DNA of 64,000 nt from an uncultured archaeon. Its GTDB lineage: Archaea; Thermoproteota; Nitrososphaeria; Nitrososphaerales; Gagatemarchaeaceae. The stretch lies in assembly GCA_963799775.1 (NCBI GenBank), contig CAWCYD010000003.1:352001-416000 (forward strand), read 5' to 3'. Under the pieces are notes generated by a model. That model was given only the letters and a program-made list of their open reading frames with translations. It had not been told where the DNA came from and did no database searches. Shown one piece after another: positions 51,949-57,315 of this stretch. Position numbers and translations under genes: made by a program. The stretch's first letter is position 1; each line of letters begins with the position of its first letter.

Positions 51949-53091
51949 CTAGCGCGAGGCCTTCCTGACTGCCACGAGGAGCTCTTCGTAACTTGCGTCC
52001 GTCTTCAGTCCGGACGACCCGAAAGGCTGCCGCATCGCCGACCGTCCGGAACCCTCGAGCTCCTCAACGACGCTCTGGAACTTCACTGAAGAGACCTTCT
52101 CCCTCGACGTGATCCTCTCGAGGGAGAACCCGAAAGGAGGGAAGCGGTCGCAAGACTTCAGAGCCTCCATCGCGCGGGCGGCTTCCCTCCACCCTTGAGA
52201 GGAGCAATATCGGAGGGACTCCCCGACCGCCGCCTCGTCCACCAGCTCTCCCAGCCATTGCGGGCCTATCGACCTGGCCTTGCTTCCGCAGCGCTGGCAC
52301 AGAGCGACAGGCGAGGGCGAGAGAGCGTTCTCGTGGCAGCTCGCGCAGGTCACGACGTATCCCAGCTGTCTGATGCACGAATCCGAGGCGGCCGCACCTC
52401 TGGAGCACCTGAAGTAGACGCGCAAGTAGTGGAGCGTAGAGTGCGCAGCCATGGGCTGGAGTCCGATGTCGAGCACCCCGCCCATCCTCGCACAGAACCC
52501 CAAGAGCACCCTGACAGCCGCCTCGTGGGAGAACTCGCTCCTGCTGACCAGCGCGCCGTACCTCCTAAGCGCGACCCTAGGATAGACACCGCACAGGGTC
52601 GCCGTGTCTGTCGCTGTCATGGAGACGATGCCCTGGTCCTGCGCCGCGGTCAGCGCTCCCTGGACATAGGGGGCCGGGGTGCCGAACGGGTCGATGTCCA
52701 CCGCGTCGAACCGCTCCGCCCTCCCAAATCTGGAGCTGAGGTAAGCGCTGGACTCCTCGTGGACCATGGCACACCTTCCCGCCAATCGGTTCACCTTGAC
52801 GTTCTTGGCCGCGATCTTCGCTGAGACCTCGTTGAACTCGACCAGCGTGACCTCGACCTCGGATGTCGCCTCGTTGGCGACGCGCACCCCTCTGGCTCCG
52901 GTCCCAGCCAGCGCGTCCAGGAAGCTTCGAGGCTCTGTCGCCCTCGCGATCGCGACGGAGACGTCTCTGTTTACCCTCGCGGCAGGGTTGAAGAAGGCCG
53001 GGAAAGTCTTCGGCTCTCGGCCACTGAGGCTCTCTTTGGGAACGAAGAGGTCGGTCGAGCCTTCGCGTATGAGCTCGAGCTCCGGGAGCAT
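51949..53091 (-). CDS. trm1: tRNA (guanine26-N2)-dimethyltransferase
   Basis: FFNPAARVNRD, LAGTGARG, DIDPFGTP, TATD, HYLR, Zn ribbon. Confidence 0.93.
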   Translation of the reverse strand: MLPELELIREGSTDLFVPKESLSGREPKTFPAFFNPAARVNRDVSVAIARATEPRSFLDALAGTGARGVRVANEATSEVEVTLVEFNEVSAKIAAKNVKVNRLAGRCAMVHEESSAYLSSRFGRAERFDAVDIDPFGTPAPYVQGALTAAQDQGIVSMTATDTATLCGVYPRVALRRYGALVSRSEFSHEAAVRVLLGFCARMGGVLDIGLQPMAAHSTLHYLRVYFRCSRGAAASDSCIRQLGYVVTCASCHENALSPSPVALCQRCGSKARSIGPQWLGELVDEAAVGESLRYCSSQGWREAARAMEALKSCDRFPPFGFSLERITSREKVSSVKFQSVVEELEGSGRSAMRQPFGSSGLKTDASYEELLVAVRKASR

Positions 53092-53152
53092 CGGAGCCTC
53101 GCCGCTCACTGCGAAGCATTTAAGCCCCGTGCGGAGGTTTCGACATGAAAAC

Positions 53153-53698
53153 TTGAGTTCATCCGGAAAGATCTGGCTGGTCACAGGCCCGCCAGGGATA
53201 GGAAAATCCACCCTGGTGGCGAAGGTAGTCTACGCGGTCAGGTCAAGAGGGCATGCGGTGGGAGGATGCCTCACAAGAGAGGTGAGGGTCGGAAGGGAGC
53301 GCACAGGATTCATGCTCATCGACCTCCTTAGCGGCAACGAGGCCGAGCTCGCCTCTGTGAAGGGACTGGGACCGAGGGTCGGCAGATACAGGGTCAACAT
53401 CAAGAACCTATCTGGCCTCGGGGCAAGCTCCCTTCTGAGGGCCGCCGAGCTAGCGGACTTCATCGTGATTGACGAGGTAGGCCCTATGGAGCTCACGAGC
53501 CCCGAGTTCAGGAAAGGCGTGAGCGCCTGCCTCAAGACAGCCAAGCCCATGCTCATCGTGCTCCACGAGAGCATGAAAGACCCGTTGATGACGGAGATCA
53601 CCGGGCAGACGAACAAGGAGCTCGTCGAGCTGACGCTCCACAACAGGGAGAAGATGGCGAATGAGCTTCCGGCGGAGATTTCATCAAGTCTGGGGTAA
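53153..53698 (+). CDS. nucleoside triphosphatase (THEP1/NTPase_1)
   Basis: TGPPGIGKST, TREVR, RVGRYRV, IDEVGPMEL. Confidence 0.92.
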   Translation: MSSSGKIWLVTGPPGIGKSTLVAKVVYAVRSRGHAVGGCLTREVRVGRERTGFMLIDLLSGNEAELASVKGLGPRVGRYRVNIKNLSGLGASSLLRAAELADFIVIDEVGPMELTSPEFRKGVSACLKTAKPMLIVLHESMKDPLMTEITGQTNKELVELTLHNREKMANELPAEISSSLG

Positions 53699-53732
53699 GG
53701 CGCCTGCGAGACACGCTCGCCGGCGTCGCGGC

Positions 53733-54820
53733 ATGCGGTCGGTTTTACGGCTCGTCGCATCTGCGCTGAAATAGGTCAGGATCATTTCTATTCACGAAGA
53801 CCTCCGGCAAAGACTTGGCGCAGATCGTAGGACTCTGGCTGGCAGAAGGCGATCACAAGACATTACGTGAGGTCACCTTCACCAACAATGACTCGAAACT
53901 CATAACCTTCTTTCACCACGTTCTTTGGGAGCACTTTACGCCACGTAACCCGCCAAGAGTCTACGTCTACCGACCGTCCAAGGATGCAACCTTCGACCGT
54001 CCGGTAATGGGCGCAGTTTACAGGTATTACATTGACCGACGGGCCAATGTGCCGTATTACATCTACAGAGTCTCTGGAGTTGAATTAGCGAGAATCTTGA
54101 GAAGAACCTCGCAGACGATATGCGCTGATTCGTCCAATTATCGGGGAATACTTCAGGGGTTCTTTGCCGGAGAAGGCAATATCAAGGAAACCATTGCTCA
54201 TTATTCGAGAGTGCTTAGAATCGCTCAAGGTAAGAGACTCGCTATTCTTGAGCGGATCTTGCGCTTTTTGAGTGTGAAGTTCAGCTACAAGCTGTCAGAA
54301 AGCTCCTACGTAATTTCGGGTCGAGACAACTTGGAAAAGCTATGGAGCATCGGCGTAAGCGAACTGCATTCGAAGAAGCACGCAAAATTTGCTGCTATGA
54401 TGTCCTCGTACCAACAATATCATTATCGACGAGGCTATCTCAGTGCTCGAATATTAGAGATCCTTTCGTTGCCCTTGACTACTCGCCAAATTGCCACCCG
54501 AGTGAATCGGGGTAAATCAAGGGTAAATCATCTATTGACTGCGCTCTGCCGGAAAGGCGAAGTCGAAATGTTCAAGGTTAGAAGCTCATATTATTGGGTA
54601 AGGAGCGACCAACAATGCGTAATAATCTCTAAGGAGAAGTCCACGATTCTAGAAGCGCTCTCCTGTCCTCGGCGACTATCGGAGATCGCCAAGGGCCGTC
54701 AACCGCACCGAGAAGTCAGTTTCCCATAGACTTGCAGAGTTGAACAGGCTCGGTCTTGTCATGAAAGCAAACTCTAATTGGCGAGCAATCGAGGTATCGA
54801 AGCGGGTGATTGTCAAATAA
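53733..54820 (+). CDS. free-standing double-motif LAGLIDADG endonuclease with two C-terminal wHTH domains (frameshift ~54692; start 53733 or 53815)
   Basis: IVGLWLAEGD and ILQGFFAGEGN motifs, FTNND block; LTTRQIATRVNRGKSRVNHLL and RRLSEIAKAVNRTEKSVSHRL after correction; AT-richer than flanks. Confidence 0.85.
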
Positions 54821-55496
54821 CGCTCATCGGTGGGGTCGATGAGGCCGGGAGAGAGCACGACGAAAAGTCGTCTCCCCGCGAGGCTGCGTACTCGGCCCGC
54901 TCGCGGTCGCAGGCGTCTCAATAGAATCATCTAGGCTGCAGGAACTCTCTGAGCTGGGGGTCAAGGACTCGAAGCTCCTCTCACCCAGCCAGCGGGACTC
55001 CCTCTACCCGGAGATCAAGAGAATCTGCAAGGGCGTCGAAGTCTCCTGCATCCCCCCGAAGATGATCGACCGATACGTCAGCAGGGGCAAGAAGTACAGG
55101 CGCCTCAACTACCTCGAGACCATCCACATGGCGAAGGTCATCGACGCGCTCTGCGTCGACGAGGTATTCGTCGACGCTCCGGACGTCAACCCGCCGAGGT
55201 TCACGATGGAGCTCGCCGAGCTGCTCACCACGACCCCACGGATAGTCGCCGAGCACAAGGCGGACGTCAACTACGCGGTCGTCTCCGCCGCCTCGATAAT
55301 CGCGAAGGTGGAGAGGGACCTCGAGGTCGCTGCGCTCAGGGAGATCCACGGCGACTTCGGCTCAGGCTACCCCTCGGACCCTGACACGATAGCCTTCCTG
55401 GAATCATGGGTGAAGAGGCAGAGCTCGCAGCCCGAGTTCGCCCGCAAGAGCTGGAAGACGTGGGAGAGGATAGTCCCGCTCCCCACCCTCGACTAG
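54817..55496 (+). CDS. rnhB: ribonuclease HII, interrupted by a 29-nt candidate intron (exons 54817-54851, 54881-55496)
   Basis: TLIGGVDEAGR|GCVLGPLAVAG, VKDSKLL, VDA, EHKAD, VSAASIIAKV.RD, GSGYPSD. Confidence 0.93.
54852..54880 (+). other. 29-nt bulge-helix-bulge intron in rnhB mRNA
   Basis: Central helix CGGG/CCCG, bulges AGA and CGA, intron stem GAG(C)ACGAC/GTCGTCTC; removal gives GCC GGG AGA GGC. Confidence 0.85.
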
Positions 55497-56170
55497 TCAG
55501 CTCAGAAGCGCCGAGATCAGCGCGTGGTCCTTGTCGAACGGATGGAGGTCGACCACGCGCTCGACGACGAAACCAGCGTCCCTCAGCTTCTGGGCCTCTT
55601 CCTTGAAGACCAGCGAGGGCTCCTTCAGCTGGTCTATGCTCCTCGCTTTGACGATGAGCAGGATCCTGCCGCCCTTTCTGAGATGCCTCTTCGCGTTCGT
55701 TATCGCGATCTCGGTCTGGTCCCTCTGCGCGATGTCGCAGTAGAGCACGTCCATCTTCCCGAAGCCACCGAAGCTCCCGGTCTCCCTTGCGTCAGAGATG
55801 AAGGGTATGACATTGGGCCTCGCCTTCGCCACCTTCTCGATGAACTCTCTGCCCACGCGGGCGGAGAGCTCCACCCCAACAACCATCCCGCCCTCGCCGA
55901 CGATGTCCGAGACGTGCGAGATTGTCGTGCCCGTCGAGGCACCGAGATATACGGCACCTTGTCCCCGATGCTTATGACATCGGGAGAGACCGCGCCCTTG
56001 AGTATGCCCCCCGCGAGCTTGCTGCGGTAGGGGTCCCATGCCCTGTACTCGCTGCCGTGTATCTTGACGAGGTCTTCGTCATACGCCGTGCGGCCTGGGA
56101 CGAGATTTCTTGTGAAAACCTTTCTCCTTCCCGGCTCCCGGCCTTCCATAACGAGGACGTTGCTTGCCAT
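55497..56170 (-). CDS. flpA: fibrillarin rRNA/tRNA 2'-O-methyltransferase, frameshift ~55950
   Basis: EYRAWDPYRSKL, YLGASTGTTISHVSD, DIAQRDQ, KARSID. Confidence 0.93.
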
Positions 56171-57315
56171 CGCGCCGGAACTCTCTTCGTTGTTCGGGTC
56201 GGGGCGCGGGTGGTTCCTTATACTTTATCCTGATTTCATTTAGTCTCTTCTCCAACAGGCCCGTGAGCTCCCCCGCCTTCTCTCCCCTGAAGTAGTCGAT
56301 CCTCGCTGCGATGGCAATCTTGTTCGCCAACGTGCGCGCGATCTTCCCTCTCTGCCATTTGGGCGCCGTGTGGACCGCCTCGTGCTGGAAGAGTATCCCG
56401 TGCTTCGGAGGCCTGGAGCCTGTCCTTATCGCCCTGAAGAGCGCCTTCTCAGCCCCCAGGACCTGGATCGTGCTGGCCGGAAGCCTGGCCATGCGCTCCA
56501 GCCCTCCCGCCCTGGCGATCAGCCTCGCCCCTATCGTCGCCCCCGCGACCGCGGTGACGTTGGGGGCGATCTTGTTCATCGTAGACTCCACCGTCTCGGC
56601 GAGCCTCTCCCTCTCCGCTGCTGTCTTGACCGCGAGCTCGGCCAGACCGACGATGCGGCGCATGTCCTTGTCTGAGATGCTGCCCCCCTTCGAGCGCTCG
56701 GCAGCGAGCACGATCGCCTCGGCCTTCTTGTCGCCGAACCCTTGCTTCTCGAGGGTCTCCTTGTCGAAGGTGCCCCGCTTTCCGATGTCTATGATCAGCT
56801 TGGCCAGCGCCAAGTTGTCTTTCAGGATGTCTTGAAGCTCAGGGAAATGCAGGCTGTACCACTCCATGGTCCTCTCGGTCGTGATGTTGAGGAACCGGTC
56901 CAGCTCGTCGAGGGCCTGTATCGCGTTGACGAGATGTATGGTCCTCTTTGGAGGAGGCCTCGCTCACCTCCTTCTCCGCCGCGGCTATGGCCCGCGCGCG
57001 AGTGCTCTCAAACGCGCTCTTGGCGTCGGACGCCAGACCCGCCTTTGCAATGATTTCGAACTTCCGCGAGTCCAGCTCGTCGCGCTCGTCGTCCGTTATA
57101 ATCGAGGTCTCGATCCCGAACTCTTCCATCTTCTCCTTCGCGGGCAGGCTCGACACCTTCAGCCGCCCGATGCCCTTCTTCTTGACCCCCTCCGCCACCC
57201 TGCGCAGGTAATCCTCTGCTCCGCCCTCCTTGCCCGACTTTTCCGAGAGGATGATGTCGTCGCCCTGCACGACCACGAAGCCGGCTTCGGTCTCGTAGAG
57301 GATGGGCTCGGCCAA
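56079..57315 (-). CDS. nop5: C/D box RNP protein Nop5/Nop56, frameshift ~56941
   Basis: EWYSLHFPEL, APN, PASTIQVLGAEKALF, PKHG, RGKIAR. Confidence 0.93.

Follow-up and report, generated by a model that had tools for sequence, protein, structure and literature searches.

A 29-nucleotide (nt) insert in rnhB, the gene for RNase HII, in an uncultured soil archaeon of the Gagatemarchaeaceae is best read as a true archaeal bulge-helix-bulge (BHB) intron. It lies in the only RNase HII gene of this genome and forms part of a cassette with an endonuclease gene, a reading to which we assign a probability of roughly 80%. The insert was found in a 64,000-nt stretch of contig CAWCYD010000003.1 (here called the window; all positions refer to it), and the DEAGRG motif of RNase HII is complete only once the 29 nt are removed. 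The first-pass annotation of this DNA had proposed the intron with its cut sites and the restored motif, which strong comparative evidence now upholds. What it had missed, and what comparison of related loci reveals, is a LAGLIDADG endonuclease gene lying immediately upstream, with which the intron forms a cassette that recurs across archaeal phyla. Judged from sequence, the intron and the endonuclease look like a travelling selfish element, not a broken gene.

The letters and coordinates first quoted for the rnhB insert were all found in the sequence, and its proposed fold was recovered in each of its parts. The central helix pairs 54846–49 with 54875–78 through four G-C/C-G pairs and is flanked by two 3-nt bulges, AGA at 54850–52 and CGA at 54879–81. 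The 8-bp intron stem is formed by 54853–61 and 54867–74, with C54856 bulged out and a loop at 54862–66. The exon-side stem is imperfect, with C54845-G54882 followed by a G·G mismatch (54844/54883) and then by the pairs 54843-54884 and 54842-54885. The tRNA splicing endonuclease EndA cleaves such structures after the second base of each bulge, a rule that we cross-checked by reasoning against the 37/38 position of tRNA introns. Cuts at these points would remove 54852–54880 and create an AG|A Arg codon, restoring DEAGRG within a 216-residue reading from ATA 54817. Left unspliced, the rnhB frame runs for 35 codons and then meets TAG at 54922–24. Exon 2 (54882–55493) matches Pfam RNase_HII (PF01351) with an E value of 4.9e-41 over profile positions 9–198 of 199; as the match begins at position 9, the missing part is just what exon 1 supplies.

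Alignment with intron-less orthologs, one of the checks proposed earlier, revealed a 29-nt insert at the same site in 7 of 27 rnhB loci of relatives, all seven belonging to the window's genus, and an uninterrupted reading through DEAGRG in the other 20. In a scan at the DNA level, 8 of 23 genomes of the genus proved to carry the insert. A covariance model matched 16 of the 97 family genomes, once each and across 5 of 10 genera, the model having been built from such insert sequences so that its training members match by construction. One element-free locus, L030 (G022), has rnhB matches in two frames (residues 1–106 and 99–204) and AGC (Ser) where the Arg of DEAGRG is expected. A weak DNA match of the intron region in contig 38 of G006 (L043) was put down to chance, as it lies on the opposite strand inside an intact epimerase-like open reading frame (ORF).

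Loci found via the endonuclease extend this distribution across phyla. In all 24 such loci from species-representative genomes, rnhB lies directly downstream with an insert before exon 2; their lineages are Nitrososphaeria, Nanoarchaeota, Woesearchaeota, Nanohaloarchaea, Aenigmatarchaeota, Iainarchaeum, Micrarchaeota, and Asbonarchaeaceae. Among metagenome loci, rnhB is found downstream in 73 of 80; five of the seven loci lacking a match have at most 181 nt of sequence past the endonuclease match, and in another (L130) the interrupted start of rnhB can be seen by eye. At L099 (2297–3395) the endonuclease gene ends, frameshifted, at about residue 265 and is followed by unrelated sequence without rnhB, so that this looks like a rearranged locus. 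Inserts of 20–52 nt, all within one 12-nt segment of rnhB, were identified at 28 distinct genome loci and at 65 of 67 distinct metagenome loci. The insert is not confined to this assembly: it is present in many independent ones, including, to judge from contig names of the NODE_ and k141_ type, short-read assemblies.

At 27 of the 28 distinct genome loci the insert forms a strict BHB whose removal restores DEAGRG in frame, and at the remaining one (L068) the central helix carries an A·A mismatch. The 67 distinct metagenome loci divide into 55 with a strict BHB, seven with a single central-helix mismatch, three with an insert outside the pattern, and two with no insert. By eye, the inserts outside the pattern have a mismatch early in the intron stem (L117 and L165) or Glu for Asp in the motif (L161). 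The strict loci use four insert positions within 10 nt: E|A at two loci (L103 and L104), A|GA at four, AG|A at 42, and G|GA at seven.

The sequences of the intron stem are unrelated between lineages, and the pairing is kept by compensatory change. In an alignment of the 28 sequences, 87.3% of cells pair compared with 69.1% in shuffles (0 of 500 as high), changes on both sides occur in 63 cells compared with 18.4 (0 of 500), and the covariation score is 0.543 compared with 0.193, although this control overstates significance because the sequences are related. Two further measures are independent of kinship. Registers slid by 1–3 columns pair in only 36–52% of cells, and the two variable pairs of the central helix occur in several types (CG 8, UA 8, and AU 7; GC 16, CG 7, and AU 2). 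The central helix is 94.6% paired, with compensatory changes, and the intron stem 88.1% paired, with all five tested pairs covarying. On its exon side the central helix is bound to the third positions of the Ala and Gly codons, and the intron side changes with it (CGGG/CCCG, TGGG/CCCA, AGGC/GCCT, CGGC/GCCG, and GGGA/TCCT). The bases of the 3′-side bulge vary as well (CGA, TGA, AAA, ACA, ATA, TCA, and TAA), with the geometry of 4 bp and 3 nt maintained.

Several properties of the fold count against its being an intron. The minimum-energy fold of the window's insert adopts a slightly different register at −20.5 kcal/mol, compared with −16.6 kcal/mol for the BHB; the folding z-score is −1.48, with 14 of 200 shuffles folding as well. 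Chance alone makes the bare pattern (a 4-bp helix with two 3-nt bulges and three or more additional pairs) common, with 2743 occurrences on one strand of the window and 3385 on the other. The exon-exon helix is weak, being 76.2% paired and consisting of one invariant C-G, a constant G·G mismatch, and then one or two pairs. Moreover, at two of the 28 genome loci, the window's among them, a crude score ranks another in-frame candidate above the true BHB; the higher-scoring candidate fails to restore DEAGRG in both cases. Motif and thermodynamics alone are thus not above chance. Three things do rise above chance: frame and motif are restored exactly, other assemblies have the insert at the same site, and the paired bases covary. 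Taken together, these data indicate that the intron is very probably real and spliced.

The machinery that splicing would need is present in the window's genome (2.47 Mb in 3 contigs, 81.67% complete, with the window on contig 3), which encodes two EndA paralogues (PF01974; 491964–492206 and 1241691–1241945 in the coordinates of contig 3) and one RtcB match. One PF01974 match was found in each of five DPANN carriers. A hetero-oligomeric EndA is reported for Thaumarchaeota (PMC5829648), and the two paralogues fit such a heteromeric enzyme. In the proposed pathway, the rnhB pre-mRNA would fold with its 3-nt bulges around the 4-bp helix, one strand of which is provided by exon 1 (the last base of the Ala codon and the Gly codon) and the other by the intron at its 3′ end. 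Cleavage by the tRNA splicing endonuclease would follow behind the second base of each bulge, and RtcB would join the exons to give the AG|A Arg codon and DEAGRG.

Evidence for the cassette comes from the arrangement of the locus. In element-free relatives, rnhB starts within about 20 nt after the stop of an upstream gene for a THEP1-type NTPase (Pfam NTPase_1), whereas in the window about 1.1 kb separates the two. The endonuclease gene or its remnants occur at all seven insert-bearing loci, compared with 0 of 23 other loci of the first set, and the gene is single-copy in the window's genome. Just after the NTPase stop, L049, L050, and L051 retain an almost unchanged copy of the sequence (start plus first 7 codons) with which rnhB really begins in the element-free L002 and L005, and the similarity to element-free rnhB stops after the Asp codon. 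Remnants comprising the ribosome-binding stretch, the start, and the first seven codons, and ending at the Asp of DEAGRG, are carried by L050, L051, L049, L054, and L082; in the window's copy (53708–32) the start codon and 2 nt have been lost. The cassette thus inserted itself at the Asp/Glu codons of a then uninterrupted rnhB, 11 nt before the intron site, and carried with it a copy of its own of the first rnhB codons (11 codons).

Two loci have the insert elsewhere: in L103 (2505–2556) and L104 (2508–2555) a BHB insert of 20–24 nt separates the Glu codon from the Ala codon, 8 nt upstream of its usual place, which is about where the old-gene remnant ends in other carriers. We also considered whether the remnant might be the true exon 1 of a larger BHB intron that contains the whole endonuclease gene. 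This reading was dropped: in the window the remnant has lost the start along with 2 nt, and at other loci it is absent or decayed.

The endonuclease gene is joined to rnhB by a short overlap. In 63 of 76 distinct loci its stop overlaps an in-frame rnhB codon by 4 nt, in the form NTGA or NTAA, the window's version being ATAA (54817–54820). The overlap codon is ATG, GTG, or TTG in 28 of the 63, and in the other 35 it is ATA (21), CTA (6), GTA (3), TTA (3), or CTG (2); the position of the window's ATA is occupied by ATG in L045 and Woesearchaeota loci and by GTG in others. These codons look as if TGA-to-TAA changes had kept the stop and spoiled the start, which suggests termination-reinitiation with a relaxed start codon. 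The sequence GGTGAT, which presumably matches the 3′ end of archaeal 16S rRNA, lies 5–6 nt upstream of the overlap, and the same spacing is seen in relatives from three genera and in DPANN loci. It therefore seems probable that rnhB is translated by coupling to the endonuclease gene and that the window's start is AUA. An alternative start at TTG 54778 was discarded; it lies in the endonuclease coding sequence, and in L008, L010, and L047 the reading from it, inspected by eye, is either interrupted or not in frame.

In the window the endonuclease ORF spans 53815–54729, where 53815 is the first TTG of the open frame and serves as a provisional start; after one extra G in the run 54693–95 the gene continues in another frame to TAA 54818–20. 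In relatives it is read in one frame of about 334–347 residues to the stop overlapping the rnhB start. Pfam LAGLIDADG_3 (PF14528) was detected in 14 of 17 relatives, with E values up to 0.01 (best 8.7e-9); the window's ORF and the L049 protein score 18.4 and 21.5 bits, respectively, both below the 22.5-bit cut-off. A TrmB-type winged helix-turn-helix was found in 16 of 17 relatives, and there are two winged-helix domains. An AlphaFold2 model of the L049 protein, which is 78% identical to the window's, has a predicted local distance difference test score of 93.5. Its structural neighbors in a Foldseek search are bI3 maturase, E-DreI, I-DmoI, I-Tsp061I, and WhiA, with a probability of 1.00 for I-DmoI (template modeling score of 0.59–0.64 on the target), E-DreI, I-Tsp061I, and bI3 maturase. 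The model and alignment together indicate a double LAGLIDADG fold in one chain, with an acidic residue ending each motif helix. These residues, Glu11 and Glu120 (E11 and E120), which we take to be the catalytic positions, are invariant in 17 of 17 relatives. A profile search of PDB sequences returned winged-helix proteins only, matching the C-terminal part, and the nuclease domain was matched by the fold search. Conserved blocks upstream of rnhB, considered as a possible promoter or RNA element, proved to be the coding 3′ end of the endonuclease gene.

The cassette is probably moved by the endonuclease, acting now or in the past as a homing enzyme. Its spread is patchy: the protein was found in only 6 of 301 sampled genomes of the order. 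On a tree of the NTPase from 35 loci, the intron state needs nine changes, at least four of them forced by well-supported branches, in a sample biased towards intron-bearing loci outside the genus, a bias that counts against the proposal. The first 102 nt of exon 2 in L007 share 69–74% identity with the intron-bearing L008 and L010 of another clade compared with 59–62% with clade mates, whereas its last 204 nt are 78–84% identical to clade mates and 60–69% to the other clade; the test is crude, and this mosaic is the pattern that co-conversion would leave. The endonuclease gene has decayed by frameshift in L003, L008, and L010 and by deletion in L004, L009, L082, and L084. In L085 (1441–1549) and L088 (reverse strand), which belong to one other genus, an intron with AGGG/CCCT is present without trace of the endonuclease gene, and rnhB follows the NTPase gene directly, with TTG or ATG as an ordinary start. 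Homing genes pass through a cycle of invasion and decay, and the decay and absence of this endonuclease gene match that cycle.

In the mechanism that we propose, the endonuclease would cut uninterrupted rnhB DNA in the stretch encoding DEAGRG, and repair from a cassette-bearing copy would bring in all three parts: endonuclease gene, exon 1, and intron. By splitting the target stretch, the intron would protect the carrier's own gene, an arrangement known as collaborative homing. That the intron serves as immunity is offered tentatively. In its favor, insertion of the cassette rebuilds the presumed target in full behind the endonuclease gene, and the four insert positions all split the same stretch of DNA. 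Against it, two of the 67 metagenome loci, L166 and L168, combine an intact endonuclease gene with an rnhB lacking the insert; L166 (2278–2305) reads DDAARG and L168 (2499–2537) the ordinary DEAGRG, and their endonuclease proteins are alike by eye.

Other observations also detract from the proposal of a mobile cassette. The window's own endonuclease gene is frameshifted, which may be an assembly error, since the neighboring fibrillarin gene is frameshifted too. No vector was found, the 79 pattern matches in viral contigs all being unrelated to the endonuclease. The introns of L085 and L088 stand alone, in conflict with a strict dependence on the endonuclease; their occurrence indicates that splicing does not need it. 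Finally, endonuclease and host-gene divergence are similar within the genus, so that vertical descent with losses could account for some of the pattern.

The alternative that survives best, although we consider it unlikely, keeps the intron as real and takes the LAGLIDADG protein to be a domesticated DNA-binding protein or an inactive relic. The two would then travel together because they lie 35 nt apart and derive from one ancestral cassette, with no protection involved. The structural neighbors of the protein include a maturase and WhiA, a regulator that combines LAGLIDADG with helix-turn-helix; the two winged-helix domains point the same way. The translational overlap with rnhB, kept across phyla, would suit a co-expressed host factor, and both endonuclease without intron (L166 and L168) and intron alone (L085 and L088) occur. 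WhiA has, however, lost the acidic residues of LAGLIDADG, whereas those of both motifs are invariant here (17 of 17). The rarity of the gene in the order, its decay by deletion and frameshift in several lineages, and its position in an insertion that retains a remnant of the old gene start likewise oppose domestication. Given this rarity, decay, and insertion remnant, together with the invariant acidic residues, a selfish gene fits better than a host factor.

That the insert is simply retained, with rnhB a pseudogene or giving a truncated protein from an internal start, is highly improbable. The first canonical ATG in exon 2 (ORF 55062–55496) could yield a 144-residue fragment, and other genes in this assembly are broken, but such a fragment would lack DEAGRG. 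All 15 intron-bearing loci tested have an open exon 2, and over its whole length the ratio of nonsynonymous to synonymous substitution (dN/dS) is 0.055–0.33 over 26 pairs of intron-bearing species, for which dS is at least 0.5 and several pairs are saturated; these values point to purifying selection on exon 2. In L009 (G020) the exon-2 frame continues past the usual stop, across a run of N's, to 452 residues. The precise maintenance of the insert structure by compensatory change across phyla also argues against decay. A second, intact rnhB, which the first-pass annotation had named as a finding that would undo its proposal, was not seen: the window's genome (81.67% complete) and the five DPANN carriers have one RNase_HII match each. 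Still less probable is that the ribosome bypasses the 29 nt by translational hopping, as in phage T4 gene 60, or that the insert is an assembly artefact: the hairpin directly follows the Gly codon and the unspliced frame stops early, as hopping would have it, but take-off and landing codons differ, the 3′ bulge bases vary while the geometry is kept, insert lengths range from 20 to 52 nt, and the same insert is found in dozens of independent assemblies.

Features of the rnhB locus in the window, read 5′ to 3′
Feature	Position	Strand	Description
Remnant of pre-insertion rnhB 5′ end, decayed	53708–53732	+	Old ribosome-binding stretch, former start now ACG (53713–15), first codons to Asp of DEAGRG
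LAGLIDADG endonuclease gene with two C-terminal winged-helix domains	53815–54820	+	Stop TAA 54818–20; lies between NTPase gene and rnhB
Shine-Dalgarno-like GGTGAT	54805–54810	+	6 nt before rnhB start, inside endonuclease ORF
rnhB exon 1	54817–54851	+	35 nt; putative start ATA 54817–19; ends with AG of Arg codon
Whole BHB motif (predicted)	54842–54885	+	Short exon-exon helix, 4-bp central helix, two 3-nt bulges, intron hairpin; −16.6 kcal/mol
BHB intron (predicted)	54852–54880	+	29 nt
rnhB exon 2	54881–55496	+	A of Arg codon, 204 codons, stop TAG 55494–96

Upstream of the cassette, ORF 52766–53698 begins with about 130 low-complexity residues that precede the NTPase_1 domain; as this domain fills only 53156–53695, the true start probably lies much later than 52766. 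Downstream, the fibrillarin gene (55500–56170, − strand) is spread over two overlapping frames that match Pfam positions 16–79 and 62–223, a break caused by a small frameshift and not by an insert. Together with the extra G at 54693–95, this frameshift suggests indel errors in the 3-contig assembly. The Nop-domain ORF that follows (56082–56867, − strand) starts at profile position 18 of 228 and lacks the N-terminal domain in this frame, which may reflect a further frameshift upstream. ARAGORN identified no tRNA gene in the window.

Our literature search, which covered neither subscription journals nor supplements, found no description of the rnhB intron or of an endonuclease/intron cassette. 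A paper of 2020 speaks of "only one example" of a coding-sequence BHB intron, besides a 5′ untranslated intron of Haloferax (PMC7714728), and a 2025 paper in Nucleic Acids Research still cites only the three cbf5 studies. In the literature covered, cbf5 of Crenarchaeota is the one gene described with BHB introns in its coding sequence. The cassette thus appears new as a combination, and it is widespread; its intron is conserved and, from the comparative evidence, almost certainly spliced. The rnhB intron would be the second, and far more widespread, case of a BHB intron in coding sequence, found in Nitrososphaeria and DPANN and interrupting a catalytic motif. If this is true, mRNA splicing by the tRNA endonuclease is no crenarchaeal curiosity, and gene callers are mis-annotating such rnhB genes, which they take for truncated or broken ones. 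That a nuclease gene so constantly accompanies the intron would provide a testable answer to the long-open question of how BHB mini-introns without an ORF spread, and the NUA stop/start overlap a natural system in which to study termination-reinitiation and non-canonical starts in archaea.

Possibly, although we would not yet put the chance at even, this is a cross-phylum selfish element of an undescribed kind. It would comprise a free-standing LAGLIDADG homing endonuclease before the only RNase HII gene, capture of the translation start through the 4-nt overlap, often with a NUA start, and a minimal BHB intron splitting the enzyme's own target. Such an element would be the archaeal, protein-spliced counterpart of the collaborative homing of phages and a plausible intermediate towards ORF-containing BHB introns.

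The closest relatives among known introns are those of cbf5 pre-mRNA in Crenarchaeota (Watanabe 2002; Yoshinari 2006; Yokobori 2009, PMC2738675), which measure 16–44 bp and lie in coding sequence; cbf5 is described as intron-free in Cenarchaeum, Nitrosopumilus, and Korarchaeum (PMC2738675). Both are short coding-sequence BHB introns, presumed substrates of the tRNA splicing endonuclease in hosts with a hetero-oligomeric enzyme, and both show patchy gain and loss. The rnhB intron differs in its gene, RNase HII, and in its lineages, and it crosses phyla, nearly always accompanied by a nuclease gene 35 nt upstream; for cbf5, the authors note an intron of insufficient length to encode a nuclease and name no partner (PMC2738675). 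The HVO_1309 mRNA of Haloferax volcanii, which has a BHB intron in its 5′ untranslated region (PMC7714728), is likewise an mRNA substrate of the splicing endonuclease. Unlike that of rnhB, its intron lies in the untranslated leader and interrupts no reading frame, and the account of it mentions no associated nuclease gene (PMC7714728).

Collaborative homing is known from cyanophage S-PM2, where the free-standing F-CphI adjoins an intron-containing psbA (PMC6083498), and a similar homing in trans is described for T4 mobE and I-TevIII (PMC2790892). The rnhB cassette resembles these systems in having an endonuclease gene beside the interrupted gene, an intron within the expected recognition stretch, and mosaic flanks. 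The phage systems, as described, use self-splicing group I introns and enzymes of the Endo VII or HNH type, whereas the cassette combines a protein-spliced BHB intron with a LAGLIDADG enzyme in cellular archaea and overlaps its host gene; its cleavage and protection are predicted, and two of 67 loci lack the intron. Archaeal rRNA genes have BHB introns that encode LAGLIDADG homing endonucleases (PMC2738675), such as I-DmoI and I-Tsp061I, and these share with the cassette the pairing of a BHB intron with an enzyme of this fold as well as an insertion point that is highly conserved. In the rRNA genes the intron is long and contains the ORF, whereas in rnhB the intron is minimal and the ORF lies outside it, upstream of the start of a protein gene, and encodes an enzyme with two extra winged-helix domains.

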